From a virus: DNA of 22,338 bases. Of this stretch, positions 5,113 to 22,244 are shown in pieces; the stretch's first letter is position 1, and each line of letters opens with the position of its first letter. The stretch lies in the UHGV virus genome UHGV-0114988, one strand, 5' to 3'. Under the pieces are notes generated by a model. The model did not search any database, was not told the origin of the DNA, and was given only the letters and a program-made list of their open reading frames with translations. The position numbers and the translations under genes are program-made.

Positions 5113-5165
5113 AACGCTGGCCTCTACGTTTTGCTACGAAAAAATTTTCTGAGAACTACGTCTGT

Positions 5166-5185: not shown

Positions 5186-5204
5186 CGCAGTTCCGATCCG
5201 CATA

Positions 5205-5224: not shown

Positions 5225-5242
5225 AAAGTTGCTAATTCGGAG

Positions 5243-5433
5243 TGGAACCACCTGCCCCCACCTGGAACCACCTTTTCCTAACCTTTCCCTCAATCGACTT
5301 ATATATATATATGGGGTTTCTAGTAGAAAGGCGGTTCCAGTGGTTCCAGTAGTTCCGCCCCGCTTGCCACAAGGTCTGCAAGGTGGAACCACCTTCTCTT
5401 TTAGGTGGTTCCGCATGGTTCCAGCGGTTCCCA
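5243..5433. repeat. Iteron array with central (AT)7 tract; candidate replication origin
   Basis: The 11-mer TGGAACCACCT occurs directly at 5243, 5263 and 5384, and inverted (AGGTGGTTCC) at 5403. Three tandem 9-mers GGTTCCAGT lie at 5333-5356, with further GGTTCC units at 5417-5433. The tract TATATATATATAT lies at about 5298-5312. The array sits immediately 3' of the primase-helicase gene and overlaps its last codons. Confidence 0.55.
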
Positions 5434-7590: not shown

Positions 7591-7791
7591 TTACACCTTT
7601 TGTCTAGCTGTCACTTCCTGAAAAAGTTTTTCTATCGCACGTACTGTAGAAAAGCGAGGGTCAGAATGAACCCCGGTAAGAAGCCGACTAATAGAAGACT
7701 GCTTCACGCCTGCAATTTCGGCAATTTGGTTTTGGGTATACCCTGAATCAATCAAGCTTTTGACCATCTCTTGTGGTGTTAGTCCGGACAT
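7591..7791 (-). CDS. Cro-like small HTH DNA-binding protein (66 aa)
   Basis: HTH-like segment YTQNQIAEIAGVKQSSISRLLTG. Divergent from the CI-like repressor, first gene of the minus-strand early operon, GGAGA RBS. Confidence 0.6.
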   Translation of the reverse strand: MSGLTPQEMVKSLIDSGYTQNQIAEIAGVKQSSISRLLTGVHSDPRFSTVRAIEKLFQEVTARQKV

Positions 7792-7932
7792 ATTTAAGTC
7801 TCCACTTTCGTCTATAGCGCAAATTTATACGAAAACGGATTACCCAGCAATACAGCAATTCTATGTCATCCTAGATTAAAATATCCGATAACGCATAATC
7901 ACCGTCCCTGTATACAACATGGATGAATCCAA
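7792..7932. promoter_or_regulatory. Divergent promoter/operator region between cro-like and cI-like genes
   Basis: 141-bp intergenic region containing a minus-strand TATAAAT (+ strand 7823-7829), the palindrome TGTATACA (about 7909-7916), and the motif GATAACGCATAATCA (7887-7901) that recurs twice downstream of cI. Confidence 0.5.
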
Positions 7933-8607
7933 ATGATTGATACTACCGATATCCTTTCTCAAAACATCAAGTACCTGATGGACAAAGCCAAGATAAGCTC
8001 GATAACTGAGCTGGCACGTCGGTTACAGCTGAACCAACCAACGCTACACAGGCTGGTATCAGGAGAGGTGAAAGATCCGAAATACGCAACGTTAAAGCAG
8101 ATCGCCGACTACTTCCACGTGTCACCAATAGACTTGGCAGAAAGGAGCCTTCAAGAAATGGAGAAAGAGGACGCGACAGGTATAAAAACGTATATTTCTC
8201 TTAGGTTTAATAAAGTACCTGTTTTGGGAAACACTCAGCTAGGCGTTGGAGGACTTTGGAGCGACACCCAATATTCAGTAGGTAGCAGTGATGGTTTCAT
8301 ATACTGGCCGACAAAGGATGAAGATGCATACGCCCTGAAATGTGTTGGTGATTCAATGATGCCTAGAATCAAAGAGGGGGAGTTCGTAATCGTCGAACCC
8401 AACCACGACTACACTCCTGGTGATGAAGTACTTGTGGTTACCCGGGACGGTGAGGTCATGGTTAAAACCTTCTTGTTCGAACGCGATGGCCTGTTCCATC
8501 TAATGTCTGTAAATGAAGATCATCCACCAGTCAGAGTACCACGCGAAAACATTGAAAAAATCCATTACGTGGCGGGGATCGCCAAATCCGCGCTACGTAT
8601 GTACTAA
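7933..8607 (+). CDS. cI: CI-like prophage repressor: N-terminal HTH plus C-terminal LexA/S24-type autopeptidase domain
   Basis: N-terminal HTH (SITELARRLQLNQPTLHRLVSG); C-terminal GDSMMP (Ser nucleophile) and VMVKTF (Lys) consistent with an S24 Ser-Lys dyad; 224 aa. Confidence 0.85.
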   Translation: MIDTTDILSQNIKYLMDKAKISSITELARRLQLNQPTLHRLVSGEVKDPKYATLKQIADYFHVSPIDLAERSLQEMEKEDATGIKTYISLRFNKVPVLGNTQLGVGGLWSDTQYSVGSSDGFIYWPTKDEDAYALKCVGDSMMPRIKEGEFVIVEPNHDYTPGDEVLVVTRDGEVMVKTFLFERDGLFHLMSVNEDHPPVRVPRENIEKIHYVAGIAKSALRMY

Positions 8608-8640
8608 CCTTTACAGTCTGATAACTTACTTCTGATCAAA

Positions 8641-8670
8641 CCGCTCTCCACAAGGGCGGTTTTCTTATTT
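8641..8670 (+). terminator. Intrinsic terminator after cI (CCGCTC-loop-GGGCGG plus TTTTCTTATTT)
   Basis: 6-bp stem (including one G-U pair) followed by a T-rich run, 34 nt after the cI stop. Confidence 0.45.
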
Positions 8671-8691
8671 GCAAAATAATTCATTTTCGCA

Positions 8692-8721
8692 TTGACACAA
8701 AATCCCATAACGCATATAAAT
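8692..8721 (+). promoter_or_regulatory. Near-consensus sigma70 promoter (TTGACA-17 nt-TATAAA(T)); candidate early-left pL-type promoter, overlapped by operator-like repeats
   Basis: TTGACA at 8692-8697, 17-nt spacer, TATAAA at 8715-8720. Motifs CATAACGCATATAAA (8706-8720) and GATATCGCATAATCA (8724-8738) overlap the -10 and start region; the latter matches the cro/cI intergenic site at 14 of 15 positions. Confidence 0.5.
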
Positions 8722-8756
8722 ACGATATCGCATAATCAATGCATTTTTTAATACTG

Positions 8757-8768
8757 GCTCTTTAACAA
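8757..8768 (+). promoter_or_regulatory. boxA-like antitermination element GCTCTTTAACAA
   Basis: 12-nt identity to the rrn-type boxA core (UGCUCUUUAACAA) as recalled, about 35 nt downstream of the predicted start of the pL-like promoter. Confidence 0.4.
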
Positions 8769-8913
8769 ACTAAACCGCGTGACAGGTAAGCCGCAGTACT
8801 CCTGGCAAAATGAAATGGCACCCGATGGGATCGAGGTAAGCGCCGAGTCCGTATGCGTACGGTAAGCGTAGAGGACAACACCGCGACAAACTGATAAGTC
8901 ACGCAAGTTGAAA

Positions 8914-8944
8914 CGCCCCGACGATGGGGCGCTTAGTTCCTTTT
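8914..8944. terminator. Hairpin CGCCCC-GACGAT-GGGGCG with U-rich flanks (terminator-like, possibly bidirectional)
   Basis: 6-bp GC stem; CTTAGTTCCTTTT follows on + strand and TTTCAACTT on - strand. Lies about 80 nt 3' of the minus-strand gene 9026..9550 and about 190 nt downstream of the pL-like start. Confidence 0.35.
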
Positions 8945-9025
8945 GGGGTGGGGTGAAGATCAGTCCATTGAGTCAATCCGAAGTTCAGCATCTACCACTA
9001 CACCACCACCAAAGAGAACTGCTAA

Positions 9026-9550
9026 TCATCTGGCAGGTTGTAACGGTGCAGGAATTTTGCCACTGACTTCTATATTTCGGGGAAATTTATATTCAGCGGA
9101 GCATTTATGACACTTGAGAATTTTATAAGCGGCATTAGAAGTATGGTATTGAAGTATAGACTTCATACCCGACTCATAGCATGTAGTACAAAGATAATGA
9201 GGCTTGAACTCAGGATCGTCAGTAGGCTTCAGTACATAGACCACCGTATTGGTAATCGGGTGGTACATTTCATAGTTCATTTTCTCACTATCCCAATCCT
9301 GTTTCTTTTCCAGAAGGGATTCGAGTTCAACAATGCGCTGTTTAGCTTCGTTCAAAAGCTCCGTTAGTGCGAATTGTCCAGTACGCGCATCAATTAGTTT
9401 ATCAAGTAGATCGATAGTTTTACTTTTAACATTGTAATCCACCTGCAACGCATTAACTTCTTTTGCTAAATCAACAGCACCTTTCAAAGCACCACCAGCA
9501 CTAGTGGCCGCCTCAGTTATACGCCGTACAAGTCCTTTTTCTTCAGACAT
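9026..9550 (-). CDS. Hypothetical coiled-coil protein with C-terminal Cys4 zinc ribbon (174 aa); moron-like gene opposed to the early-left operon
   Basis: ATG ORF; N-terminal 100 aa predicted helical/coiled-coil; CxxC...CxxC (CTTCYE...CHKCSAEY) at the C-terminus. No family recognised. Confidence 0.55.
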   Translation of the reverse strand: MSEEKGLVRRITEAATSAGGALKGAVDLAKEVNALQVDYNVKSKTIDLLDKLIDARTGQFALTELLNEAKQRIVELESLLEKKQDWDSEKMNYEMYHPITNTVVYVLKPTDDPEFKPHYLCTTCYESGMKSILQYHTSNAAYKILKCHKCSAEYKFPRNIEVSGKIPAPLQPAR

Positions 9551-9570
9551 CTTAATTCTCTCTAAAACTA

Positions 9571-9620
9571 TAGGGGTAAAGAGATATTAGCCGAATTCTC
9601 GCTGTAGGGGTACAGAGAGA
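9571..9620. repeat. Two direct repeats TAGGGGTA(A/C)AGAGA spaced about 34 bp, upstream of the minus-strand gene 9026..9550
   Basis: Read directly at 9571-9584 and 9605-9620; plausible promoter/operator elements. Confidence 0.3.
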
Positions 9621-9678
9621 GCCATCTCGTCTGACGTGGTTAAAACTGACATCCATGTAATTGCTGTGTGTAGCCTTT

Positions 9679-9707
9679 GCCCGCCTCAAGTGACGGGCTT
9701 TTTTATG
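9679..9707 (+). terminator. Intrinsic terminator (GCCCG-N10-CGGGC plus TTTTTTAT) on + strand
   Basis: 5-bp GC stem, 10-nt loop, 6-T tract, about 55 nt upstream of the small ORF at 9764. Confidence 0.4.
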
Positions 9708-9763
9708 TCTGAAAGCGCACTCGCAACAGCGCGCTCCCCGATATGAAAAAAGGAATACAACCG

Positions 9764-9913
9764 ATGAAACCTGAACACATCCATCGACTGACGGGGCGCG
9801 ATGTTCTCCGTTATCGCCGTAAAAACTTCGATTTGATGACCGGTCTGGCCGTTGCCACTGCGCTCGGTCTGATCATCACTTTCATTCTCCTTGTAGCGAG
9901 GACCACAGTATGA
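9764..9913 (+). CDS. Hypothetical small tail-anchored membrane protein (49 aa; alternative start at 9743 gives 56 aa)
   Basis: [49 protein letters not shown]: basic N-terminus, C-terminal TM helix. AAGGA RBS 8 nt upstream. Stop TGA overlaps the ATG of the next gene (ATGA). Confidence 0.4.
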   Translation: MKPEHIHRLTGRDVLRYRRKNFDLMTGLAVATALGLIITFILLVARTTV

Positions 9914-10812
9914 GTTTAGAAACCAGTCTCGAACTTAATAATCAACTTCTGGCACAACATAATGCGCTGCTTGAACGTCTTATCCGCACAATGGCATCAG
10001 GTATTGTTATGCATCCTGACACGATTTCACGAGTGCAGGAATGTCGGGATACAGCAACTGAAGCTGAAAACATGTCAGCGGCAATGACACTGGATGATCT
10101 GGAGTTCAGCGACGTTATCGCACTGGCTGGTTTCTACCCGGTAGCCACCCCTATCACAGAAGACATGCTGCAACGTGCTGTTGCCTACCGTGATGCTGAA
10201 GGCGATAAACGAGTAGTTCAGATTGATGCTCTCGACAGCGCATTGCAGGGCGTCAAACGAGCCAGGGCGCTGCTTAAACCTGCTCTCCTGGACCTGTCCC
10301 GTAACATTCTTAAGTTCTGGGACGACCTGCCAACCATCGGCGAGCGACGTGCTTTTGCCGAGCAGCTACTTGATGCACCTGCAGATGGGCGTGATGAAGT
10401 TAAACCGAAAAAGGCTAGTGACAAAGATGGAGAACGCACGGGGCCGTTTTACGTCAAAAATATATCCGGCACAGCAGCCAGTGAACTCCACACCTTACGC
10501 AAGTTGAACGAGATGCTTAAAAAAGGCCATATCGAGATCAACCGTGTTGAGTACCTTCAGCTGCAGGAAGAATTTGCACGCAGAGACGCAGCAAATTCCA
10601 GCCAGAATAATGACGCCAAAGATGACCATACAATTGATTTCGCGGCACTACGCAAACAAGCTGAAGGGTTGATCCTCCAGTTAGCAAAAGGGGGTTACCG
10701 GGCAGAAGCTATTGCAATTCTGGAAAAACAGGGAGCCAGGAAACTTGGTGAAGTAATGGATGAAAATCTCGCTGAAGTAATCACCCTAGCTGAAAAAGCA
10801 CTGGAGGGTTAA
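9910..10812 (+). CDS. Hypothetical acidic helical protein (300 aa), first large gene of the rightward replication/recombination operon
   Basis: Long ATG ORF in operon context, translationally coupled on both sides. No motif recognised. Confidence 0.55.
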
Positions 10813-10814
10813 TC

Positions 10815-12116
10815 ATGCCAGACGTTCACGCACAACTTTCTCCATCATCAGCGCATCGATGGATGCGCTGCCCAGGAAGTCTGGCGCTGGAGGCCACACA
10901 ACCGGATAAAGAAACAACTTTTGCAATCGAGGGCACTGCAGCGCACGCGCTTGCTGAAAAAGTTCTACGAAACAGGCAAAGCCACCCGGAACACTACGCC
11001 GGATGCAATGTTTCTATGTTTCTCGGCTCATACCCCCTTCGCGAAAATCCTGATGATACATCTGGCCCACAGGTGGATGATGAAATGGTCGAAGCCGTTG
11101 GGCGGTATGTTGATACGGTCTGGACTCTTGCACAGAATAATGAACTATTGGTTGAACAACGTGTTGATTTCTCACATATAACGGGGGTGGAAGAATCTTT
11201 CGGAACTGCCGACGGCATAATCATCGCTGGTAACGAATTACAAATCCACGACCTGAAATATGGCAAAGGCGTCCGCATTGATGCAGAACAAAATGAGCAA
11301 CTACAACTGTATGCTCTGGGTGCGCTCGAACAATTCAGCATGCTGTATGACTTTGAGACTGTAAGATTATTTATTCACCAGCCAAGGCTCAACCACGTTT
11401 CAGAATGGTCATTAACCGTACAGGAACTTCAGTCTTTCGGTGAACGGGCACAGGAGGCCGCAACCAGTGCGATCCTTGTTCTCAATATTGCTGAATGCGA
11501 AGGCATTGAGACACTACCGCTGGAAAACTTCATACCTGGAGAAAAACAGTGCCGCTTCTGTAAAGCAAAAGCTATTTGCACTGCCCAGAAAATGCAGCAT
11601 TTACAAACAGCGGCCAGCGATTTTGAAGATCTGACAAAGCCTGTCAGCGAAATAATCACCAATGCCAGCGCACGTGTACCTCTGTTAACCATTGAGCAGC
11701 TTGCGGAGATCTATAGCCAGGCCGACTTTATTGAATCCTGGCTAAAGGCAGTACGAGACCGGGTTCACAATGAACTCAATGCCGGACATCCGGTACCGGG
11801 GTTTAAACTGGTAACAGGAAAACAAGGTAACCGGGCCTGGAGTGATGAAGAGGCAGCTCGCGCACTTCTGAAGGACCAGTTCAGGTACAAAACTGAAGAA
11901 GTATTCGACTTTAAACTTATTAGCCCCACAAAAGCCGAAAAACTTATCAAAAAGGCCAGTCCGCGCCGTTGGTCAAAAGTCGAGGCACTGATAACACGAG
12001 CTGATGGTAAACCCACCGTCGTTCCCGAGTCAGACCCACGCCCCGCACTCAATATTAACCCTATAAATGATTTCGACGACGTATCCGACGATACGCTAAC
12101 CGCAGACCTCATCTGA
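10815..12116 (+). CDS. PD-(D/E)XK nuclease, Cas4/RecB-like phage exonuclease with C-terminal Cys cluster (family often annotated DUF2800)
   Basis: N-terminal [15 protein letters not shown]-x-K-type motif IHDLKYGKG, Cys cluster [10 protein letters not shown] suggesting an Fe-S or Zn site. 433 aa. Family assignment from memory. Confidence 0.7.
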
Positions 12117-12131
12117 TTTAAGGAAATCCCC

Positions 12132-12680
12132 ATGAAACTGAAGCTGAACAATGTTCGTCTGGCTTTCCCGTCTCTGTTTGAAGCTAAAACTGTAAACGGC
12201 GAAGGCGATCCACGTTTCTCCGCAGTATTTTTAATGTCACCCAAACACCCACAACTGGAAGAAATCCGTAAAGCTATGAAGCAGGTAGCGAAGGAAAAAT
12301 GGGGAGAGAAGTGGGAGTCCATTTATAACCAGCTGGAGAAAAAACTCAATCTGTGCCTGCATGATGGTGATGAAAAAGCAGAGTATGAAGGCTTCCCCGG
12401 TAATTTCTTCCTGAATGCTGCTAACAAAGCGCGCCCTGCTGTTCTTGATCGCGATCGTTCGCCACTGATTCAGGCTGATGGACGTCCCTATGCAGGGTGC
12501 TATGTAAACGCCGTTATCGATATCTGGGCACAGGACAATAATTTCGGTAAACGCATTAATGCCTCACTCGGCGGAGTCCAGTTCCTGCGAGACGGCGATG
12601 CATTCGCTGGCGGCGGAGTGGCAAGCGCTGACGATTTCGACGATATCAGCGAAGGTGCTGATGCTGAAGCACTGATTTAA
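12132..12680 (+). CDS. Phage ssDNA-binding-like protein (DUF2815-type), 182 aa, acidic C-terminal tail
   Basis: N-terminus MKLKLNNVRLAFPSLFEAK resembles DUF2815 proteins that accompany family-A polymerases in phage replication modules (recalled). Acidic tail DDFDDISEGADAEALI is SSB-like. Confidence 0.6.
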   Translation: MKLKLNNVRLAFPSLFEAKTVNGEGDPRFSAVFLMSPKHPQLEEIRKAMKQVAKEKWGEKWESIYNQLEKKLNLCLHDGDEKAEYEGFPGNFFLNAANKARPAVLDRDRSPLIQADGRPYAGCYVNAVIDIWAQDNNFGKRINASLGGVQFLRDGDAFAGGGVASADDFDDISEGADAEALI

Positions 12681-12694
12681 TCCTGCTTCACAGA

Positions 12695-12720
12695 CGCCCG
12701 GTTAAACGCCGGGTGTTTTT
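12695..12720 (+). terminator. Intrinsic terminator after the SSB-like gene (CCCGG-loop-CCGGG plus TTTTT)
   Basis: Stem of 5-7 bp followed by a T5 run, 15 nt after the stop codon. Confidence 0.4.
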
Positions 12721-13063
12721 GCAAAGGGGAATATGCCCAGAGCTACCTGTATTGTTCTGGTTAGCACCCAGTCGCCCTGCTACCCCGATATTGACTCATC
12801 GCCCCCTTCCGGTTTATGCTCACCGAATCTCCCAAATGGAGATCGGGATTTGCAACCCGGAATTGTTAGGGGCGACACCAGACGCGCCAGCGTCTTTTTT
12901 ATTGTCGCAAGCTTTGCCACGTTCGCATTATGGCGGGCTGGCGGGGGCGCTTCGGCGCGCCGGTTTCCTCTAACGCCGGTATTGCAAACCTCGTCAGTTC
13001 GCCACCCATATGAGATTTGCAACTCAGTGGTGGCGGTGAATTTCACCGTTAGAGGTAACTGTG

Positions 13064-13828
13064 ATGGCAACTCAGCTCATCCCCGTTTTCAACGGCGCTA
13101 TCGCCAACGAAACCACCCTGCTCTGCAATGCTCGCGATCTGCACGCATTCCTTGGGGTAGGGAAAGTGTTTGCAGCGTGGATTACATCACGAATTGCAGA
13201 CTATGAATTCGTTGAAAATCAGGATTATATCGTAACGTTTTCCAAAACTGGAAAGCGTAAAAATGTTCTTTGTAAGGACTACCACCTCACTCTCGATACA
13301 GCCAAAGAACTGGCGATGGTGGAGCGCAACGAAAAAGGCCGCCAGATCCGCCGATACTTCATCGAGTGCGAAAAGAAACTTCGCCAGCAATCCTCCACGA
13401 TACTGGCGCCACACAGGGAGTGTCTGCCGAAGATGGTTTACCATCACCGGAGCAAATACAATCCGTACAGGGCTTATGCATGGGACGGAGAGAAAAGCGT
13501 TTACGTCGGGTGCTATCCGACTGTGGATGAGGCTGTCGCTGCTCAGGAACGCTTCTACCGGAACGGCAGCACGAAACGCATTCAGAAGGCGCAGACAGCA
13601 GTCAGTGACGCAGAGAAGGAAATGTTCATCAACAATCTCCGCGCCGTCTGCCATAACTTCCGGCGCATCAATGAAATCTGGCGGGCGCAGTTAATGCCTG
13701 CTCTCGAAAAAATGGATTCGAAACTGGTTTACCAGCTGCATGACCGCTTCAGCGACAGCATGTGCATTCTGCCGACCATAGAAGACCGCATCGGCAGATA
13801 TATTCCGCCGTCACAGCTTCCACACTAA
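13064..13828 (+). CDS. AntA-family antirepressor-like protein with uncharacterised C-terminal domain (254 aa from ATG; track start is GTG at 13061)
   Basis: N-terminal region (ARDLHAFLGVGKVFAAWITSRIADYEFVENQDY ... YHLTLDTAKELAMVERNEKGRQIRRYFIECEKKL) resembles the AntA/AntB N-terminal domain as recalled. AGAGG RBS. Confidence 0.6.
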   Translation: MATQLIPVFNGAIANETTLLCNARDLHAFLGVGKVFAAWITSRIADYEFVENQDYIVTFSKTGKRKNVLCKDYHLTLDTAKELAMVERNEKGRQIRRYFIECEKKLRQQSSTILAPHRECLPKMVYHHRSKYNPYRAYAWDGEKSVYVGCYPTVDEAVAAQERFYRNGSTKRIQKAQTAVSDAEKEMFINNLRAVCHNFRRINEIWRAQLMPALEKMDSKLVYQLHDRFSDSMCILPTIEDRIGRYIPPSQLPH

Positions 13829-13839
13829 TTCCACAATTC

Positions 13840-13866
13840 GCCCCTGCTCAGTCAGGGGCTTTTTAT
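13840..13866 (+). terminator. Intrinsic terminator after the antA-like gene (GCCCCTG-N6-CAGGGGC plus TTTTTA)
   Basis: 7-bp stem and T-run read directly, 12 nt after the stop. Confidence 0.45.
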
Positions 13867-13943
13867 CACCGTTTAATTTACGGAGGACTTCGTTTTGTCT
13901 GAAAACACTGATTTAAAAAAAGCAAAGTATCAGACCTGTAATA

Positions 13944-14543
13944 TCATTTGGCCTGATACTTACTTGCATCTATTTTCAATAATTGGGAATTATACTTCTT
14001 TATAACGCCTCGTCCCGGAAAAAGAAACCAAAACATAAAAGCCATCCATATACACAGCAGCATTAAAACAGCGCTCATTCCTATAAAAACAGCGCCATAA
14101 TTTAACGACCAACAGAAAAATATCAAGCCATCAGCCAAATAAAAGATAGAAACAACTTTAGAACACCAGCGACATCGTTTGTATTTACCTTTGTAGCGTA
14201 TAAAGAATCTATCGTATTTACACTGAATATGGGGTGCTAAATAACCCCACTGCCAAAACGGCATTTTCAATTCAGAATACGTTCTGACATAAATAACTAA
14301 CGTTCTTAATTTCTGGCTACTTATACCTAATATACTTTTTTTAACTTCTCTTTTGATTTCTGCCTTCATAAACTCTACATCAGAAGGCTCAATATGCTCC
14401 GGATAATTCTTCAGAATATGCGAGAATTTTGTTGTTTTCGGTAAAAACCAACTAGCATCTTTAAATAACTTATAAACACCGACTGGTGCAGTTATGGCTG
14501 AAATTATGACTCCAACAAGTGAGATAATATCTTTCGTATCCAT
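13944..14543 (-). CDS. Hypothetical AT-rich membrane protein (about 199 aa from ATG at 14543; track ORF starts at a TTG at 14570)
   Basis: Markedly AT-rich codon usage relative to its neighbours; predicted TM helix at the N-terminus (IISLVGVIISAITAPVGVY) and two at the C-terminus; Lys/Arg/Cys-rich central region. Opposite strand to the flanking replication genes. Confidence 0.5.
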   Translation of the reverse strand: MDTKDIISLVGVIISAITAPVGVYKLFKDASWFLPKTTKFSHILKNYPEHIEPSDVEFMKAEIKREVKKSILGISSQKLRTLVIYVRTYSELKMPFWQWGYLAPHIQCKYDRFFIRYKGKYKRCRWCSKVVSIFYLADGLIFFCWSLNYGAVFIGMSAVLMLLCIWMAFMFWFLFPGRGVIKKYNSQLLKIDASKYQAK

Positions 14544-14569
14544 GTAGCTAATTCTTCGGAGTAAATACA

Positions 14570-16633
14570 ATGTCCAATATACTATGGGGCGACCTGGAAA
14601 CTTTCTGTGAAATATCTATCAATAATGGCACCCATGCGTATGCCGAAGGCGTTGAAGTGATGCTGTTCGCATGGGCTATCAACGACGGGCCAGTAAACGT
14701 GTGGGATATCACTGCCGGTGGTGGTATTCCACACGGCTTATACGAAGCAATCGCAGCCCCTGAAACCCTGCTTTATTTTCATAACTCTCACTTCGACCGC
14801 ACCGTCCTGCGTTATGCAATGCCGCGCCTGGCACCGCCAGTCGAACGTTGGCGCGACACAATGGTGCAGGCGCTGGCGCACGGTCTCCCGGGGTCTCTGG
14901 GGGAACTCTGCGAAGTACTAGGCGTCCCGCAAGACAAAGCGAAGGACAAAGAAGGTAAAGCGCTGATCCAGCTGTTCTGTAAGCCACGCCCGAAAAACAG
15001 CAAACTGCGCCGGGCCACCAGCAAAACCCACCCGGAAGAATGGCGGCGCTTTGTTGCTTACGCCGGACTGGATATCGAGGCAATGCGCGAAGTCTGTAAA
15101 CGTCTGCCGAAGTGGAATTATCAGGGGACAGAACTGGCGCTCTGGCATCGTGATCAGCAGATCAATGACCGGGGCGTCTGCATGGACGTGGAACTCGCAC
15201 GCGCTGCGATCGACGCGGTAGACCAGGAACAAAAGCGCCTGGCAAAGCGTACACAGGAAATGACTGATGGCGAAGTGCAGGCAGCCACACAACGAGACGC
15301 GTTGATTAAGCACATTGTTGAATCCTACGGTGTGGAGCTACCAGACATGCAACGCAGTACTCTGGAACGTCGTATTGCCGACCCCGATTTACCATCTGCC
15401 GTGAAAGAACTGCTGGCTATCCGCCTGCAGGCCAGTACTACCAGCACCAGTAAATACAAGGCACTGATGAAAGGCGTAAGCCACGACGGGCGCTTACGCG
15501 GTACGCTACAGTTCTGCGGGGCGTCACGTACCGGTCGTTGGGCCGGACGGCTATTCCAGCCCCAGAACCTTCCCCGCCCTTCACTCAAACAGGAACAAAT
15601 AGACGAAGGCATCGAAGCACTGAAAGCCGGATGTGCAGACCTGCTGTTTGACAATATCATGGAACTAACCAGTTCAGCGTTACGTGGCTGCATTATCGCG
15701 CCAACAGGCAAAAAGCTGGTGGTAAGTGACTTGTCGAACATTGAAGGCCGTATGCTGGCATGGCTGGCGGGAGAAAAATGGAAACTGAATGCATTCAGAG
15801 AGTACGACGCCGGGACGGGTCCGGACTTATATAAACTGGCGTATGCAAAAGCTTTCGATATTGCACCAGATGATGTTGATAAACACATGCGTCAGATCGG
15901 TAAAGTCATGGAACTCGGTCTGGGTTATGGTGGTGGTGTGTCGGCCTTCATCACTTTTGCACTGGTTTACGGTCTCGATCTCGACGAGCTGGCGAACGCC
16001 GCACTACCAAACATTCCCCGCGATGTTATCCGCGAGGCGAAAAGCTGGTACGACGAATCGGTTAAACGCAAGTCAACCTACGGGCTTTCTGAACGGATAT
16101 TTATCGCCTGCGACTCACTTAAACGTCTCTGGCGCAGGGCGCACCCGGCGACCTGCGATTTCTGGTACGAACTGGAGCGCACCGTCCGCACTGCAATCGC
16201 CACACCGCAAAAAACATTGTATTGCGGCTATCTTAAAATCCGCCGCGATGGCGCGTGGCTGCGCATACAGCTACCATCCGGACGCGCTGTATGCTACCCG
16301 TCTCCGGTTATCGAACAAGGGAATATCACCTACATGGGTGTTAACTCTTATTCGCGTAAATGGCAACGACTCAAAACCTACGGCGGAAAGCTGGTGGAGA
16401 ACGTCACCCAGGCGGCCGCCCGCGACGTTCTGGCCAGAAACATGCCGCTTATCGAAGATGCCGGTTACAGCATTGTGCTGACGGTACACGACGAGGTGAT
16501 CACCGAATCACCTGACACAGAAGATTTCAACGATAAAGCGCTTTCCGCGCTTCTCTCCACTAACCCCGAATGGGCGCCCGATATCCCACTGAACGCTGGC
16601 GGTTTTGAGGCGTACCACTACCGTAAGGATTAA
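14570..16633 (+). CDS. Family A DNA polymerase (T7/PolI-like) with 3'-5' exonuclease domain, 687 aa
   Basis: Exo motifs GDLETF and [12 protein letters not shown]; polymerase motif [16 protein letters not shown], motif [17 protein letters not shown], motif C LTVHDEVI. Confidence 0.9.
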
Positions 16634-16638
16634 CTCCT

Positions 16639-16854
16639 ATGTCATTTAAATACCGGGACAGTCCGCTTTATTACCGGGCTGCGAGGGAGGCTTTGCGACT
16701 TGAACAATCCGGCGAATATGACCGGGCAGCGAAGGTCTGGGCAAAAGCCAACCGCGAATCACATCACGAACTGAATCAGGAATGGAGTGAACGCAGATCT
16801 GATTTTTGCCTGATGCAGAATATGCGTGAAAAGCGTAAGGCGGTCGAAGAATGA
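16639..16854 (+). CDS. Hypothetical small protein (71 aa)
   Basis: ATG ORF tightly packed between the polymerase and the next gene (4-nt overlap). Confidence 0.4.
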   Translation: MSFKYRDSPLYYRAAREALRLEQSGEYDRAAKVWAKANRESHHELNQEWSERRSDFCLMQNMREKRKAVEE

Positions 16855-17150
16855 TCGTTTACGTTGCCGGGCCGATGAGCGGTTACGAGCAATTTAACCG
16901 CCCGGCCTTTCATTCCGCAGCAAAGAGGCTAACGGACAAGGGATATGTTGTGCTTAACCCCGCAACTTTACCCGATGGTTTGACACAGGCTCAGTACATG
17001 GACATCTGCCTCGCAATGCTTCGCTGTGCCGATACGATTTATATGCTCAAAGAGTGGGAGTACTCTGCCGGCGCACGTGCAGAAAACGCGTTGGCAGAGA
17101 AACTGGTATTGAATGTGCTTTTTGAAGAGTGGGATTCAGATGGCCTATGA
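16851..17150 (+). CDS. DUF4406-like (nucleoside 2-deoxyribosyltransferase-fold) phage protein, 99 aa
   Basis: N-terminal MIVYVAGPMSGYEQFNRPAF is typical of this family as recalled. Confidence 0.45.
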   Translation: MIVYVAGPMSGYEQFNRPAFHSAAKRLTDKGYVVLNPATLPDGLTQAQYMDICLAMLRCADTIYMLKEWEYSAGARAENALAEKLVLNVLFEEWDSDGL

Positions 17151-17409
17151 ACGTGAGAGCCTTATCGAAAAGCACCTCGTCGCTGAAGTGAAAAAGGCTG
17201 GCGGTGTGGCCTTTAAGTTCGTATCTCCCGGTCGCCGCTCGGTACCGGATCGCATTGTCCTGCTACCCGGCGGTCGCATCGTTTTCGTTGAATGTAAATC
17301 TCCCGGCAAGCCACCACGGCCTGACCAGTTGCGCGAACATAAACGTCTGCGAAAGCTGGGCTTTACCGTGGTGGTGCTGGATAGCAAGAACCTAGAGAGG
17401 ATATTGTGA
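17140..17409 (+). CDS. VRR-NUC-type small PD-(D/E)XK nuclease (about 89 aa from internal ATG of track ORF 17113..17409)
   Basis: Motif VPDRIVLLPGGRIVFVECK (D...E-x-K) within a roughly 90-aa protein. Confidence 0.55.
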   Translation: MAYERESLIEKHLVAEVKKAGGVAFKFVSPGRRSVPDRIVLLPGGRIVFVECKSPGKPPRPDQLREHKRLRKLGFTVVVLDSKNLERIL

Positions 17410-17546
17410 AAAAATCAGATGAACACTTACAGTTTAAATTACGGATCCCCCGCGCATTAGCGGAGGAGTTAAAGAAAACAGCAAAGAAAAATATGCGTTC
17501 AGTAAATGCAGAAATATTATTCAGACTAGCTAAAGACCTTAAGTAA
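17406..17546 (+). CDS. Arc-like ribbon-helix-helix repressor (46 aa, GTG start overlapping the upstream stop)
   Basis: FKLRIPRALAEELKKTAKKNMRSVNAEILFRL parallels the P22 Arc pattern (FNLRWPREVLDLVRKVAEENGRSVNSEIYQRV, recalled). Below the ORF-track cutoff and GTG-initiated, hence moderate confidence. Confidence 0.45.
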   Translation: MKKSDEHLQFKLRIPRALAEELKKTAKKNMRSVNAEILFRLAKDLK

Positions 17547-17564
17547 CAATTTCGTTACGGTACC

Positions 17565-17879
17565 TTATTTTTTCCCCAAACGATTTTCTACGAGTTCATG
17601 CAGCCTTTCTAAGAGTTCTGTGTTTTTTTCAATATTTTTGCCCCACTCATTAAGCAAAGATTCAGCTTCGCGTCCAAGCCCCATACCTTCAGCTTGGCGT
17701 AGATATAAAAACGCATGAGTATTCTGGCTTTCCAGCTTATTTATTGCAGGAAATGAAGACCTTAAGCGTTGAAGCACCTCTGCATTCAACGAACGACCGT
17801 TAGCACGGGCTGCATTCTCCAATAATTCTTTCAGTTCCGCAGGTAAACGGATCTTCATCTGCGCATCTTCACGACTCAT
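17565..17879 (-). CDS. Mnt/Arc-family ribbon-helix-helix repressor (104 aa)
   Basis: N-terminal KIRLPAELKELLENAARANGRSLNAEVLQRL is an Arc/Mnt-type RHH; length and C-terminal extension are Mnt-like. Divergent from the Rha-like antirepressor operon. Confidence 0.6.
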   Translation of the reverse strand: MSREDAQMKIRLPAELKELLENAARANGRSLNAEVLQRLRSSFPAINKLESQNTHAFLYLRQAEGMGLGREAESLLNEWGKNIEKNTELLERLHELVENRLGKK

Positions 17880-17911
17880 AGTAACTACCTCATAAACTCG
17901 ATTCTCAAAGT

Positions 17912-18169
17912 ATGCACCACGGTGGTGTTGACATCAATAAACCACGGTGGTTTACTGAAATGGACCACAGTGGTTTCATCGAGGTTAACGCTATGGCTAT
18001 TCAGATCACACAGTTACATCAGGCAGATATTTTCGGGTATATCGCAGACATGCTGGAAACAGCAAGACTTCTCAGTTCGCTGGAAAAAGGAGAGCAGTTA
18101 GCTTTTGAATTGATTTATTTTGCGCAGCAGGCCGCAAGGGAAGCTGCAAACAAGCCGTGGGATGAATAA
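17912..18169 (+). CDS. Hypothetical small protein; track ORF is 85 aa but the true start is probably internal (Met28 at 17993, 58 aa), because a promoter and operators overlap the 5' end
   Basis: ORF in the ant-like operon upstream of the Rha-like gene. GAGG RBS precedes the ATG at 17993. Confidence 0.35.
   Translation: MHHGGVDINKPRWFTEMDHSGFIEVNAMAIQITQLHQADIFGYIADMLETARLLSSLEKGEQLAFELIYFAQQAAREAANKPWDE
17915..17975. promoter_or_regulatory. Three palindromic operator-like sites (C)CCAC-n-GTGG(T) interleaved with a + strand promoter (TTGACA-17 nt-TTTACT)
   Basis: CACCACGGTGGTG at 17915-17927, ACCACGGTGGT at 17941-17951, ACCACAGTGGT at 17964-17974; TTGACA at 17928-17933 and TTTACT at 17951-17956. 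Confidence 0.45.
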
Positions 18170-18229
18170 ACAAAACGCGCTGATAGTTGCAGCTACCAGC
18201 GCATCCTTTACTGAATGGAGAACACTTCA

Positions 18230-19009
18230 ATGTCCGAAAGAACTTTAACACTAGCAGGCACTGGTAAGCAACCGATGATGAGCAGTCGCGAGATAGCAGA
18301 AGTGGTAAATAAAAACCATGCCGATGTTTGCCGTGATATTCGTGCAATGCTGGCAAAGCTTTACGGCGGTGATGAGCGCGATTATATCCGTAAAGCCGAT
18401 TTGCTTTACCTTACGAATCAGTGTGTTAATTGCCTGCAGTACAATACCGATAATCCAAACGCATGGGAGTACCAACTTGACTATGAACACTCCGAATGCC
18501 TTGTAACAGGTTACGATGCCGTTCGTCGTATGGCGATGATTAAGCACTGGCAAAAACTGAAAAAAGAAGTCGAGCACCCCCAGTTAGCTATCACTCACCC
18601 CGCACCTGTAATTCAGGTGGATAGTAGAATTGTCCAGCTTGCTCGCGTCATCGCGGAGGCAACCGCATCAGCAACCATGAAAGCGATGTCGGAGGTGATT
18701 GCCCTTCCGACATATCAAGCAGAATCGGCCGCACCAGCTAATTTATCTCATGTTAAAGGTGAATATGTCCCCGTCAGCAAAGCAGCATGGAAAACAGGTT
18801 TATCTGATTCAACATGCCGGAAATTGATCGGCTTCGCCAGGATACCGGTACGTTCAGACACCGGTGTTCGGGGATTGCTCGTTAACCTCCCAGCGATCGA
18901 ACAAGCAGCTCAAAAGCTGTTAAACGAATCGACACCGCCGAAAGGTAACCGCAAGCGCTGGACACATCCGCAGTTTGGCAACTTCACCTACTACACCGAT
19001 CTAATCTGA
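18230..19009 (+). CDS. Rha-family phage regulatory/antirepressor-like protein (track ORF starts at 18215; ATG at 18230 has the better RBS)
   Basis: MSSREIAEVVNKNHADVCRDIRAM matches the conserved Rha N-terminal motif as recalled. Confidence 0.6.
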   Translation: MSERTLTLAGTGKQPMMSSREIAEVVNKNHADVCRDIRAMLAKLYGGDERDYIRKADLLYLTNQCVNCLQYNTDNPNAWEYQLDYEHSECLVTGYDAVRRMAMIKHWQKLKKEVEHPQLAITHPAPVIQVDSRIVQLARVIAEATASATMKAMSEVIALPTYQAESAAPANLSHVKGEYVPVSKAAWKTGLSDSTCRKLIGFARIPVRSDTGVRGLLVNLPAIEQAAQKLLNESTPPKGNRKRWTHPQFGNFTYYTDLI

Positions 19010-19053
19010 CATTATTGCGCGGGATTACCCCGCGCCCTACTGGCTAAAATACT

Positions 19054-20448
19054 ATGGGACAAATTTTCACGCCTCGCCCCTACCAAGATCTAATTATCAA
19101 CCACGAAATAGGTATTTCCCGCTGCAACATCTGGGCGGGCATGGGTATGGGCAAAAGTGTAGCCACTCTGACGGCGCTGGAAGATCTCTTCATGGCGGGT
19201 GCAGAAACACAACCTGCGCTGGTTCTCGCGCCGCTGCGCGTGGCTGCCAGCACATGGCCTGATGAAGCGCTGAAATGGGGGCATCTGCGTAATATTGAGG
19301 TGCAACCGATTGTTGGTAACGCCAAAGCGCGCTCTACGGCGCTGGCGAACAGCAACGCGAGCGTGTTCACCATCAACTACGATAACCTTGTCTGGCTGGT
19401 TGAAGAATTGGGAGAACGATGGCCGTTCGGTACTGTCATTCCAGATGAAAGCACCCGGCTAAAATCCTTCCGGCTGCGAGGTGGTGGTAAGCGCGCGGCG
19501 GCGCTGGGCAAAGTGGCGCACAAGTATGTCCGGCGCTGGATAAATCTCACCGGTACGCCAGCACCGAACGGCCTGGTAGATTTGTGGGGACAATCGTGGT
19601 TTGTGGACCAGGGGCAACGTCTCGGGCGCACTTACGGCGCGTTTACCTCACGCTGGTTTAATTCGATACAGTTTCCGGGACAGAGCTGGACTAAACTGGA
19701 GCCTTTTGCTCACTCACAGGGTGAAATACAGCGAGCATTAGCCGATGTGACCCTCTCGCTGGATGCGGCCGACTGGTTCGATATCAAAGCCCCCATCCAT
19801 AACGTAATCCGCGTGGATATGCCGCCGAAGGCCCGTCAGCAGTATCGTGAAATGGAAAAGGAAATGTTCCTCGAGCTGAATGGCGAAGGCATCGAAGCAC
19901 CTAACGCCGCGGCAAAGACACTGAAATGTCTTCAAATCGCCAGTGGCGCAGTATACACAGACGACACCGGAAGTTGGTCAGAACTGCATGACACCAAACT
20001 ACAGGCGCTGGACAGCATACTGACCGAAGCAGCTGGCGCACCTGTGCTGGTTGCTTATCACTGGAAACACGATCTTGAACGCTTGCTTAAAGCATTCCCT
20101 CGCGGTCGTCACCTCGACCAGGATCCACAGACACTGCGCGACTGGAATTCCGGAAAGATTCCTGTTCTCTTTGCACACCCAGCCAACGCGGGCCACGGCC
20201 TGAACATGCAGGACGGCGGAAATATACTGGTATTTTTCTCACACTGGTGGGACCTGGAGCAATATCAGCAAATTATTGAACGCATCGGGCCAACCCGGCA
20301 GATTCAGGCCGGACACAACCGCCCGGTGTTCATTCACCACATTATCGCCGCCGACACTATGGACGAAATGGTGATGGAGCGGCGCAACTCAAAACGAACA
20401 GTGCAGGACATCCTGCTCGATGCCATGAAAAAGAGAGGTATAGCATGA
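19054..20448 (+). CDS. SNF2/DEAD-like superfamily-2 helicase (464 aa)
   Basis: Walker A GMGMGKS, motif II VIPDESTRLK (DExx), C-terminal helicase domain; typical partner of the polymerase/primase module. Confidence 0.8.
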   Translation: MGQIFTPRPYQDLIINHEIGISRCNIWAGMGMGKSVATLTALEDLFMAGAETQPALVLAPLRVAASTWPDEALKWGHLRNIEVQPIVGNAKARSTALANSNASVFTINYDNLVWLVEELGERWPFGTVIPDESTRLKSFRLRGGGKRAAALGKVAHKYVRRWINLTGTPAPNGLVDLWGQSWFVDQGQRLGRTYGAFTSRWFNSIQFPGQSWTKLEPFAHSQGEIQRALADVTLSLDAADWFDIKAPIHNVIRVDMPPKARQQYREMEKEMFLELNGEGIEAPNAAAKTLKCLQIASGAVYTDDTGSWSELHDTKLQALDSILTEAAGAPVLVAYHWKHDLERLLKAFPRGRHLDQDPQTLRDWNSGKIPVLFAHPANAGHGLNMQDGGNILVFFSHWWDLEQYQQIIERIGPTRQIQAGHNRPVFIHHIIAADTMDEMVMERRNSKRTVQDILLDAMKKRGIA

Positions 20449-20645
20449 GCGAGAAACCCGACGATTTACTCACCCCGGATGAAGTATGCCAAAAGTTAGG
20501 TATTACACAGAAAACGCTATGTGAGTGGAATATTAAGCATCGTCATCGGGCTATCCTGGCTCCAATTCGTTTCAGTGCAAAAGTAGTTCGTTATGAGCGC
20601 CGAAATGTCGACGCTTTTATTCAAAAGTGTCGCAGCCAGTATTAA
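20445..20645 (+). CDS. AlpA/Xis-like small HTH protein (candidate excisionase or directionality factor), 66 aa
   Basis: LTPDEVCQKLGITQKTLCEW HTH-like segment; adjacent to and convergent with the integrase gene, with a 4-nt overlap. Confidence 0.5.
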   Translation: MSEKPDDLLTPDEVCQKLGITQKTLCEWNIKHRHRAILAPIRFSAKVVRYERRNVDAFIQKCRSQY

Positions 20646-22039
20646 CCTCGCCGCCGTAGCAATGCAACCTGCGCAAGTATGCTCCGCTCGTGAGCCTCGA
20701 AAGCTTCGCGCTTCAACGCAATATCTTCCTGCAAAATCTCATCAGAAAAGTCGTAATGTTCTGCCATCGGGTCATCTGACTTGCTGGAGTGGTGAAGGCA
20801 AAGGAGGCTGATTTCCCTTCGGTCTGATCGGGAATAGCCTCTTTCCTTCATCAAGGCAATAACATTGCTCTTAAAGAATTTACGGCACATCGTATTAAAT
20901 GTACCGTCTTTCCCTTTAACAGTCCCATCATGTTTTATTCCTTTTACAGCCCCATCCGGGCTGTATGTTTTCACTAGCTTATCCAGTGATCGTTTTGAAA
21001 ATGGCTGCATTGGATCACGCGGCTGCAAAAATACATAATCCCTGTTGCACTCAGGAACTGAATCACGCCATGCTTTCTGCTCGTCGATAATCCGCCGGAT
21101 CTCCGGCGTTATTGGCAGGCGGAAAGCCTTTTGTGTTTTCATAGCCCCTCGCATGCCGATAACCCCTTCAGGATAAACAATTTCGCCAGTCTCCTCCTGA
21201 ACGTAGTCCCAGCGCAGGTTATGGACATTAATCGGACGAACGCCGGTGATGATCATGAAGCGAACAGCATTCTTCTGGTGTACAGAGGTGCAGGCGGCAA
21301 CATTGAGCCAGAGCCGGGCGATTGACTCAATATCGGTAAAAAGCCGTGTGGGGGTGGGTTTCTGTACGCGGGAGGAAACATAATCATCTGGCAGACTGGC
21401 GGCAACATTGCGGCCATTGCAAAGAGTAGGTGCGCAGAACTTCCAGAACCGACGGAGCTCGGCAAACAACTCCAGGGCGTTATTGTTCGAGCGAGTGGCG
21501 ATCCACTCGTCCAGCACTTCCACCAGCCGATTGTATGTTACGTCGCTGAACACCTCGCGCTCGCCGAACGTGGCTTTAATCCGGTCGATACGCACCCCGT
21601 AGGTTGTGAAACTGTCCGGGCTCAGCTTCTGCCGGGCTACTTTAGCTTTGAGGTCATCCCGGTACATTTCCAGCGCTGCATGTACGGACTCCGCCCGCAG
21701 TCCACCGTCAGCCATACCTAGTGCTTTTTCGCGCGCCAGCTGGATAGCGAGCTCCGGCCACTCGCCGAGCTTTTTACCTTTGAGGCCCATCTTTTTTGGA
21801 AACTCGGCGTAAAATGTAACCTTACTGGCTTTGCTGAAATCGATACGGAGATAGTTCTCTTTTTCGTATTTGGAACGGCGAGCCACGCCGGAAGCAGCGA
21901 GGATGATTTTGGCGGCAGCAACACAGATTTTCATGTGTGCGCTGGTATAGGGGGGTTTACAGGCGTCCCATTTTTCAGATGCGGCTAAAACATCGTCATT
22001 ATTGGGGCTATCCGGATTATGTGTTACAGTGCGCGGCAT
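20642..22039 (-). CDS. int: Tyrosine-type site-specific integrase (about 465 aa from ATG at 22039; track ORF begins at an in-frame TTG at 22045)
   Basis: C-terminal catalytic-region motifs (GVRPINVHNLRW with Arg; LCLHHSS; AEHYDF with the putative Tyr). Terminal position next to a host gene. AAGGA RBS before the ATG. Confidence 0.75.
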   Translation of the reverse strand: MPRTVTHNPDSPNNDDVLAASEKWDACKPPYTSAHMKICVAAAKIILAASGVARRSKYEKENYLRIDFSKASKVTFYAEFPKKMGLKGKKLGEWPELAIQLAREKALGMADGGLRAESVHAALEMYRDDLKAKVARQKLSPDSFTTYGVRIDRIKATFGEREVFSDVTYNRLVEVLDEWIATRSNNNALELFAELRRFWKFCAPTLCNGRNVAASLPDDYVSSRVQKPTPTRLFTDIESIARLWLNVAACTSVHQKNAVRFMIITGVRPINVHNLRWDYVQEETGEIVYPEGVIGMRGAMKTQKAFRLPITPEIRRIIDEQKAWRDSVPECNRDYVFLQPRDPMQPFSKRSLDKLVKTYSPDGAVKGIKHDGTVKGKDGTFNTMCRKFFKSNVIALMKERGYSRSDRREISLLCLHHSSKSDDPMAEHYDFSDEILQEDIALKREAFEAHERSILAQVALLRRRG

Positions 22040-22244
22040 TCTCAATCCTTATCTGCGTAGGCGCAGAAAACAAGCTCACACATACAAGTCTTTTCTACGG
22101 GACAAAATGCAATGTGTTGCGGTTTTGTGTTGCTGGACTGAGTTTATCAAGGTTAAATACACTGGATCAACATACAGTAAGTGAATGACAGTAAAGCATA
22201 CAAACTCGATACAACTTACTGATTTTAAAATAATTTAATGGTAA

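Follow-up and report, generated by a model that had tools for sequence, protein, structure and literature searches.

A replication region split around the cI/cro switch of a yfhL prophage of Escherichia coli, most probably of the APSE-1/BPP-1 type

Why should the replication genes of a prophage lie on both sides of its immunity switch, transcribed away from each other? The question is raised by the viral genome UHGV-0114988, a stretch of 22,338 nucleotides (the window) that covers the early and late-regulatory half of an Escherichia coli prophage integrated beside yfhL. As an initial annotation had pointed out, the replication genes are not those of lambda and are placed on either side of cI/cro. 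The annotation regarded this arrangement as notable mosaicism in a lambdoid scaffold. However, the same divergent arrangement is found in phages APSE-1, BPP-1, YeP4, Xfas53, BcepC6B and Scapp, and examples of the two-armed layout, APSE-1 and Bordetella BPP-1 among them, have been on record since 1999. It had been set down beforehand that the mosaic view would fall if a long-described lineage with the same arrangement existed, and the synteny comparison with relatives shows that one does. The early region of the window is very probably a member of the established APSE-1/BPP-1/YeP4/BcepC6B/Xfas53 type, in which the two-armed split is ancestral and no foreign module was inserted, and which would work by the mechanism proposed below. 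The exchangeable (mosaic) parts are the Q, lysis and virion modules and three accessory slots.

The gene map was made from a six-frame list of open reading frames (ORFs) and profile searches of the window (Pfam, PHROG, NCBIfam, PDB and Rfam), which bore out the genes, positions and domains of the initial annotation. The mean GC content is 50%. Leftward from the immunity region, the cro arm on the minus strand consists of cro, a PrimPol–VapE gene, Q and a tRNA-Arg, followed by esterase and lysis genes. The plus strand carries CI, a variable stretch, a gene for a 300-amino-acid (aa) protein, DUF2800, a protein binding single-stranded DNA (SSB), a family A polymerase (PolA), a VRR-NUC nuclease, an SNF2 helicase and xis, with int convergent to it. 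The absence of lambda O- and P-type genes also holds up: the PrimPol-helicase gene is the only one between cro and Q, no ORF matched a replication O or P family, and the initiator and helicase loader that characterize lambda-type phages between cro/cII and Q are not found in the window.

Relatives were identified by a protein search with PolA against phage records; their annotations were then compared, and the window proteins were aligned to them by tblastn. PolA matches three E. coli records at 98% identity, Yersinia phage YeP4 at 73%, BPP-1 at 67% and APSE at 65%, with further matches in phages of Acinetobacter, in Burkholderia BcepC6B, in Xylella Xfas53 and in others. The same gene order on the same strands is seen in APSE-1, BPP-1, YeP4, Xfas53, BcepC6B, Scapp, vB_EcoM-606R2 (606R2) and the prophages of E. 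coli STEC1590 and O103:H2 12009. One side comprises the repressor, a cro-like regulator and the primase/helicase, followed by Q and lysis genes in APSE-1 and Xfas53. The other strand carries a protein of about 300 aa (in APSE-1, BPP-1 and YeP4), DUF2800, DUF2815, a variable slot, PolA, the VRR-NUC nuclease, a second variable slot, the SNF2 helicase, xis and int. In the Serratia siphophage Scapp, a divergent pair is recognizable in which a small regulator and a primase lie opposite the exonuclease–SSB–polymerase–nuclease–helicase set. Synteny of the early region among APSE, BPP-1, Bcep, Xfas53 and YeP4 has been published (Boyd 2021, PMC8579659). The window has the defining features of this type: a divergent cI/cro pair with a primase/superfamily 3 (SF3) helicase gene directly downstream of cro, and DUF2800, DUF2815, PolA, VRR-NUC, SNF2 and xis/int in this order, at identities of 46–74%.

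The identities also show how the parts of the region have travelled. Between the window and YeP4 or APSE-1, respectively, they are 61% and 50% for cI, 62% and 50% for cro, 73% (over 715 aa) and 72% (over the C-terminal 410 aa) for the PrimPol-helicase, 59% and 55% (P51) for DUF2800, 62% and 55% for the SSB, 72% and 63% (P44) for the VRR-NUC protein and 73% and 74% (P41) for SNF2, in addition to the PolA values given above. BPP-1 is more distant in DUF2800 (Bbp38, 46%), VRR-NUC (Bbp43, 48%) and SNF2 (Bbp47, 66%). Since cI and cro (50–62%) track the replication genes (55–74%), immunity and replication appear to have been inherited together, and there is no separate lambdoid scaffold. Q has no match in YeP4 and is 39% identical to APSE-1 P5.

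APSE-1 (NC_000935) provides the fullest parallel. Like the window, it has cI opposite cro, a helicase-type protein (P3), Q (P5), a toxin slot and lysis genes, with iterons 3′ of P3 that are covered by a small ORF. Its other arm runs P53, P51, P50, a slot, P45, P44, an Ant/regulator slot, P41, xis and int, and amino acid identities to the window range from 39 to 74%. Unlike the window, APSE-1 has a P22-like podovirus virion module, a PolA gene interrupted by an HNH gene, and a different integrase, iterons and accessory genes. YeP4 (MK733262) shares the layout and the iteron position and is the closest sequenced phage relative outside E. coli that was found; it differs in being a podovirus with no recognizable Q homologue, in its iteron (TAGACAACCT) and in lacking DUF4406 and the antA and Rha slots. 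BPP-1, BcepC6B and Xfas53 have the divergent two-armed replication layout around cI/cro, with PolA identities of 56–67%, but their PrimPol is only 27% identical over 187 aa, they carry extra genes, for instance a methylase, between cro and the primase, and they infect Beta- and Gammaproteobacteria outside the Enterobacterales.

The cro arm begins with a Cro-like helix-turn-helix (HTH) regulator (7591–7791, minus strand; HTH_3, E = 1.2e-9). It is followed by the PrimPol-helicase (5401–7587, minus strand), a 728-aa protein that combines an archaeo-eukaryotic primase with a VapE/D5-like SF3 helicase (VapE-like_dom, E = 1.7e-59). The Prim-Pol domain PF09250 covers residues 48–185 (E = 1e-9) and passes the Pfam threshold when the N-terminus is scanned alone. 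The helicase core (residues 393–657) aligns in the PDB search with the structure of Rep1 from a Staphylococcus aureus pathogenicity island (SaPI; 7pds_A, E = 2e-33) and includes the Walker A motif GPQGCGKS. This combination of a primase with an SF3-type helicase is that of self-loading replicons of the SaPI Rep, pRN1 ORF904 and P4 alpha type, and the protein is proposed to be initiator, primase and self-loading helicase in one. The cro-side early operon ends with a Q-type late antiterminator (4690–5112, minus strand; Phage_antitermQ, E = 7.5e-31). Homology to prophages of the O103:H2 12009 type breaks off at about position 5057, within the 5′ end of Q.

The initial annotation had placed a PrimPol primase-helicase and an iteron cluster on the cro arm next to Q, and both are there. 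The putative replication origin (5243–5431) takes in the final codons of the PrimPol-helicase gene and runs on just 3′ of it. The 9-mer TGGAACCAC, also written TGGAACCAC(CT), occurs seven times with at most one mismatch in 5243–5423, in both orientations, and there are two further degenerate copies. The repeats surround an AT-rich core, ATATATATATATAA, at about 5299–5312. The window holds 13 matches to TGGAACCAC against 4.9 expected, a number reached in none of 100 shuffles, and as a single strand the origin region has a fold z-score of −4.0. An ORF that spans the iterons (orf95, 5156–5443, minus strand) was considered as a gene, but it has no family match, is unannotated in RefSeq relatives and is probably non-coding.

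All relatives examined have an iteron cluster 3′ of the primase-helicase gene, with repeats in both orientations around an AT-rich center. The cluster follows the gene immediately in the window, STEC1590, APSE-1, YeP4 and 606R2, and lies about 470 bp 3′ of it in BPP-1. The repeats themselves are lineage-specific: TGGAACCACCT in the window, CGTAACAACCT in APSE-1, TAGACAACCT in YeP4, GCCGTCACCT in 606R2 and TTGCCTCGT in BPP-1. A repeat or stem-loop 3′ of the replication gene is what the APSE/BPP-1 type of early region would lead one to look for: Berkner et al. likened the PrimPol–SF3–winged-helix protein of BPP-1/BIP-1 to pRN1 ORF904 and proposed an origin 3′ of its gene (PMC4234260). In SaPIs, the iterons bound by the self-loading Rep helicases stand on either side of an AT-rich stretch directly downstream of rep (PMC9371898), and the window has the same arrangement, with iterons in opposite orientations flanking an AT-rich region just downstream of the gene.

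In 606R2, cI and cro are 100% identical to those of the window, whereas across the replication segment (606R2 28384–30911 against window 5243–7587) the primase-helicases are 52% identical over the N-terminal 418 aa and unrelated in the C-terminal half, and the iterons are GCCGTCACCT in place of TGGAACCACCT. Helicase C-terminus and iterons thus differ together, as expected of a pair that determines initiator–origin specificity, and judged by sequence the difference looks like a swap of replicon specificity within one immunity group. The 606R2 record includes host genes at one end, so it represents a predicted prophage and is no proof of inducibility, and a literature search on the vB_EcoM-606R2 phage records found no paper.

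Among better-known systems, SaPI Rep and PriRep5 and pRN1 ORF904 resemble the window in coupling a primase with a helicase of the SF3 type and a C-terminal region for DNA binding, in an origin made of short, oppositely oriented repeats about an AT-rich center immediately downstream of the gene, and in a small repressor gene upstream. Unlike the window, they have no polymerase of their own and use host enzymes, and the sequence relationship is confined to the helicase core. The lambda O/P system is similar in its position between cro and Q, its origin in or next to the initiator gene, its transcription from the cro side and its lineage-specific iterons. The window differs from it in having no O/P homologue and no loader to recruit host DnaB; primase, helicase, SSB and polymerase are all phage-encoded.

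The PolA arm is preceded by a 56-aa ORF (9743–9913, plus strand; phrog_11981) with a hydrophobic C-terminal segment (residues 29–56), which is 94–96% conserved in E. coli relatives and overlaps the next gene. That gene, at the head of the arm (9910–10812, plus strand), encodes the 300-aa protein, which matches phrog_6784 (E = 1e-177) and had no match in Pfam, NCBIfam or PDB. Its counterparts by position are proteins of about 300 aa in APSE-1 (P53), BPP-1 (Bbp36) and YeP4; only the C-terminal 57 aa or so are similar to YeP4 and APSE-1, and there is no sequence match in BPP-1, whose Bbp36 carries variable region 2 of that phage. Next come an exonuclease of the DUF2800/PD-(D/E)XK (Cas4/RecB-like) kind (10815–12116, plus strand; DUF2800, E = 3.8e-110; PDDEXK_1, E = 2.2e-10) and a DUF2815 single-stranded DNA-binding (annealing) protein of the T7 gp2.5 type (12132–12680, plus strand; Enc34_ssDNA-bd/DUF2815, E = 2.4e-44). 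The latter matches the SSB structures of Enc34 ORF6 (5odj, E = 4e-16, and 5odk), for which the function of DUF2815 has been established (PMC5686142).

The polymerase (14570–16633, plus strand; DNA_pol_A, E = 6.8e-14) belongs to family A and has an N-terminal DnaQ-like 3′–5′ exonuclease domain. The Pfam match to the exonuclease is weak and below threshold (E = 0.0086), but the Exo I, II and III motifs (DLET, HFD and YAGLD), with their acidic residues, and the polymerase motifs A, B and C can all be read, as in a proofreading enzyme of this family. Across six homologues F75/D76, Y164/D168, D387, R441/K445 and H640-D641-E642 are invariant.

Between the polymerase and nuclease genes sits a small PerC/ANR-like regulator (16639–16854, plus strand). 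RefSeq names its homologue as a transcriptional regulator of the ANR family, and its match to Pfam PerC falls below threshold. Because it is kept in YeP4 (66% identity) and APSE-1 (52%), it belongs to the core module. The DUF4406 gene is present as annotated (16851–17150, plus strand; E = 1.1e-33), but it is not a core replication gene: it is an accessory of the E. coli lineage only, absent from APSE-1, YeP4, BPP-1 and 606R2. The VRR-NUC-type nuclease (17113–17409, plus strand) is a putative junction- or flap-resolving enzyme; the assignment draws on a match to phrog_93 (endonuclease, E = 9.6e-33) and on the name that RefSeq gives to a homologue with 95% identity. Its Pfam VRR_NUC score is 20.5 bits against a cut-off of 23.8. 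The arm ends with an SNF2-family helicase or translocase (19054–20448, plus strand; SNF2-rel_dom, E = 7.8e-10) that also matches Snf2/Rad54 structures in the PDB. In relatives, genes of the homing-endonuclease type interrupt the module: a NUMOD4 protein between the 300-aa and DUF2800 genes of STEC1590 (23772–24290) and an HNH endonuclease inside the PolA gene of APSE-1 (29132–29554). Neither is present in the window.

The switch from which both arms depart is built around a CI-type repressor (7933–8607, plus strand) with an HTH domain (HTH_26, E = 3.7e-12) and an S24 autopeptidase domain (E = 2.6e-18), whose exact sequence is found on at least 1000 public contigs. The cro–cI intergenic region resembles OR (7827–7896) and includes two 14-bp pseudo-palindromic operator candidates, ATACGAAAACGGAT (7827–7840) and ATCCGATAACGCAT (7883–7896). 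Two more lie in tandem beyond the cI terminator (8638–8662, plus strand, from a terminator scan), at 8702–8715 and 8720–8733. These overlap a pL-like promoter on the plus strand, read by eye as TTGACA (8692–8697), a 17-nucleotide (nt) spacer and TATAAA (8715–8720) and proposed to serve the PolA arm. The pseudo-palindrome ATnCGATAwCGCAT has four distinct sites in the window, all within 7827–8733, and six strand-matches against 0.87 expected. Related ATGCG..CGCAT motifs are common to the OR and post-cI regions of YeP4, APSE-1 and BPP-1, and the block from 7781 to 8931 is kept at 98–99% in STEC1590 and 606R2.

Two candidate RNAs near this promoter were rejected. The conserved 200-nt leader (8730–8950) was considered for a put-like or structured RNA and gave a fold z-score of +0.37 and no Rfam match. 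An RprA-like Rfam match at 9606–9708 scored 46 bits against a gathering threshold of 70 and was treated as a terminator hairpin. The hairpins precede position 9743, the start of the 56-aa ORF.

The following sequence of events is proposed. CI would hold two divergent promoters through the ATnCGATAwCGCAT operators and so repress both arms, and its cleavage would release both together. On induction, the cro arm would supply Cro, the PrimPol-SF3 helicase and Q, while the other arm would supply the 300-aa protein, the DUF2800 exonuclease, the gp2.5-type SSB, PolA, VRR-NUC and SNF2. The PrimPol-helicase would act as initiator, self-loading helicase and primase by binding the inverted iterons that flank the AT-rich core 3′ of its own gene, on the model of SaPI Rep and pRN1 ORF904, at a site that transcripts from the cro-side promoter would also cover. 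Primer extension would fall to PolA, with its proofreading domain, and to the SSB, and the exonuclease, VRR-NUC and SNF2 proteins would process and recombine the intermediates into packageable concatemers.

In E. coli, this early region is not rare. The PolA gene matches 159 of 5426 complete genomes, 157 of them at more than 95% nucleotide identity and two at 80–90%, and the cro–primase–ori segment matches 138 genomes. Members of the primase-helicase cluster at 90% also come from Citrobacter, Klebsiella, Kluyvera and Enterobacter. The PolA-carrying E. coli prophages usually lie beside yfhL and include converters for Shiga toxin (Stx) 2b. The best overall match to the window is the Stx2b prophage beside yfhL in STEC1590, where the stx2b operon is located between the tRNA and an STnc100 element. 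In the window, a stretch of about 95 bp (4338–4434) stands for the 1.38-kb stx2b segment, which makes it an stx-negative sibling of an Stx2b phage; there is no stx ORF. The STnc100 small RNA is matched over its full length (4104–4309, minus strand; 174.6 bits) between the tRNA-Arg (4443–4519), which lies downstream of Q in the direction of the arm, and the gene for a NanS-p-type esterase. This esterase, a DUF826 protein, a P21-type holin and a lysozyme follow leftward on the minus strand. O103:H2 12009 and 606R2 combine the same early region with another Q, another lysis cassette and another virion module.

These prophages have been encountered before under other descriptions. In the Eru10 type of Stx phages, only a Prim-Pol (PF09250) protein and Q lie between cI and stx (Fagerlund et al. 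2022, PMC8951638). The window has Prim-Pol and Q only between cI and the stx position, identical to the layout of the STEC1590 Stx2b prophage, although it carries no stx. The Eru10 reference CI (KYS86001.1, contig LOGT01000177.1) is not among the 15 listed members of the window's CI cluster. The Eru scheme considers the cro side only, and the PolA arm is unmentioned. A 2025 paper reported that the yfhL Stx2b prophages of STEC1586 and STEC1590 “lack the regulatory region”, failed to be induced and are potentially defective (PMC12029490). However, the STEC1590 locus has intact cI, cro, PrimPol and Q genes and a PolA arm, although its portal gene is frameshifted, and the missing regulatory region is better explained by a non-lambda early region. 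Taken further, the yfhL prophage family, with its Stx2b converters and its typing as Eru10 from the cro side only, may represent an unrecognized enterobacterial branch of the APSE/BPP-1 type. This branch would have a complete, self-contained replisome whose specificity changes by swaps of helicase C-terminus and iterons, its Stx2b prophages would be intact, and its toxin slot after Q would be positionally homologous to the APSE toxin cassette. The odds lie slightly in favor of this wider proposal.

Several points weigh against the membership and mechanism favored here. A consensus promoter scan of the window found neither pR nor pL; the pL-like site was missed because its −10 hexamer ends in A, and pR could not be placed by consensus. 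A reverse gene (9026–9550) and terminator-like hairpins intervene between the pL-like promoter and the PolA arm, and neither an N-like antiterminator nor a structured leader was found. The PrimPol domain of the window finds no counterpart by alignment in the N-terminal domain of APSE-1 P3, which implies that the primase moiety is itself exchangeable. Residues 658–728 or so of the PrimPol-helicase lie beyond the 7pds alignment and have no family match; this C-terminus is a putative DNA-binding region in which a winged-helix domain is assumed. The cro arm fits Eru10 as compared with the published description rather than with the reference sequence. Finally, the origin function, the binding of CI and the way in which PolA shares the work with host Pol III have all been inferred.

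The alternatives must be set against these. According to the initial annotation, a lambdoid scaffold recently acquired a foreign polymerase-type module in pieces, one for each arm, and the split results from mosaic recombination. The Q/lysis region (1–5057) does have the usual character of Stx and lambdoid phages, and its exchange is independent of the rest, and the uneven GC content across the region would fit a recent acquisition. However, the split around cI/cro recurs in phages of Hamiltonella, Yersinia, Bordetella, Burkholderia, Xylella and Serratia, the operator half-sites ATGCG..CGCAT are common across the lineage, and the immunity genes have diverged from YeP4 and APSE-1 in step with the replication genes, all of which makes such a history very improbable. 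A different possibility is that recombination and repair are the main task of the PolA arm, which occupies the position of lambda red/gam (exo/bet/gam), while the PrimPol-helicase and its origin form the whole replicon and host Pol III carries out bulk synthesis, as in P4, SaPIs and pRN1. The DUF2800 exonuclease and the gp2.5-type annealing SSB would make a plausible recombination pair, VRR-NUC and SNF2 are repair-type enzymes, and the SaPI and pRN1 homologues of the initiator depend on host polymerases. Against this, the catalytic and proofreading residues of PolA are all kept across six distant homologues, and every relative, Serratia phage Scapp included, keeps PolA collinear with the genes for SSB and helicase. 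Moreover, the Enc34 authors count primase, DNA polymerase, VRR-NUC nuclease, helicase and the DUF2815 SSB (ORF6) as a replication module (PMC5686142). A mainly recombinational role for the arm is thus unlikely, though it is the most serious of the alternatives.

It might also be supposed that the element is a decaying, non-functional prophage remnant and that its genes no longer serve any purpose. Such decay would agree with the failure to induce the yfhL Stx2b prophages, with the frameshift in the STEC1590 portal gene and with the lack of stx in the window. The 20-odd early-region ORFs of the window are all intact, however, and early ORFs are 94–100% identical, in the same reading frames, in well over 100 genomes, so that decay is decidedly doubtful. 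Membership in the APSE-1/BPP-1 type remains the preferred explanation.

Where the initial annotation saw two accessory insertions, the antA and membrane-protein genes are accessory indeed, but they belong to one of three variable slots. The first slot, between the SSB and PolA genes (12714–14560), is unaligned to the O103:H2 12009 prophage and holds an AntA antirepressor (13061–13828, plus strand; E = 1e-24) and an AT-rich membrane protein (13944–14570, minus strand; 34% GC) with hydrophobic segments at residues 14–36 and 155–190. Upstream of antA lies a C4/isrK-type antisense RNA region (12814–13009, plus strand), in which Rfam matches to C4 antisense RNA (12926–13009, 70.6 bits) and isrK (12827–12900, 50.9 bits) exceed their gathering scores and a c4-a1b1 target match (12814–12863) is sub-threshold. 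Because of the C4 and isrK matches, the insertion resembles the RNA-controlled antirepressor cassettes of P1 immI and Gifsy-1 isrK. An ORF of 157 aa (orf157, 12733–13206, plus strand) overlaps these RNA matches and is probably non-coding. The slot between SSB and polymerase is variable in APSE-1, YeP4 and Xfas53 as well, and in Xfas53 it likewise contains an antirepressor (BRO-N).

The second slot lies between the VRR-NUC and SNF2 genes (17409–19071, from the alignment to the O103:H2 12009 prophage). It encodes an Arc-like repressor (17565–17879, minus strand) and, pointing away from it, an 85-aa ORF and a Rha-family regulator (18215–19009, plus strand). APSE-1 has Ant and a regulator here, and O103:H2 12009 a cytosine methylase. 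The slot resembles a secondary immunity or antirepressor unit of the P22 immI kind. Together with antA, it gives the prophage two candidate antirepressor modules.

The third variable stretch, defined against STEC1590 and 606R2, lies between the pL-like promoter and the PolA arm (about 8944–9650). It contains the reverse gene mentioned above (minus strand; phrog_1244, 41% GC), whose 174-aa product is a coiled-coil protein carrying a CxxC...CxxC motif at its C-terminus; STEC1590 has an HNH endonuclease and another ORF instead. Its position recalls the genes of the lambda rex/sieB type that are expressed in lysogens. None of the accessory ORFs, the 174-aa gene among them, matched a PADLOC defense system. 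At the prophage end beside yfhL, an excisionase-like HTH_17 protein (20445–20645, plus strand; a profile match) is convergent with a tyrosine integrase (20642–22045, minus strand), which abuts yfhL in close relatives. Neither protein was found by tblastn in APSE-1, YeP4 or BPP-1.

The practical value of these results lies mainly in annotation, and a specialist in phage genomics will find little surprise in them. Such prophages should not be scored as defective, or as devoid of regulation or replication, for the absence of O, P and N, and the description of prophages as lacking a regulatory region can be corrected. Of modest value, too, are the link of the Eru10/yfhL Stx2b prophages to the APSE/BPP-1 early region and the co-variation of the iterons with the helicase C-terminus. 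Half of the replication apparatus escapes the Eru typing of Stx phages. An Eru10 phage comes equipped with a polymerase, SSB and helicases of its own, which could affect the copy number after induction and hence the toxin dose in stx-positive relatives. With their pairing of lineage-specific iterons and exchangeable helicase C-termini, these phages provide a simple natural setting in which the origin specificity of PrimPol-SF3 initiators can be studied.

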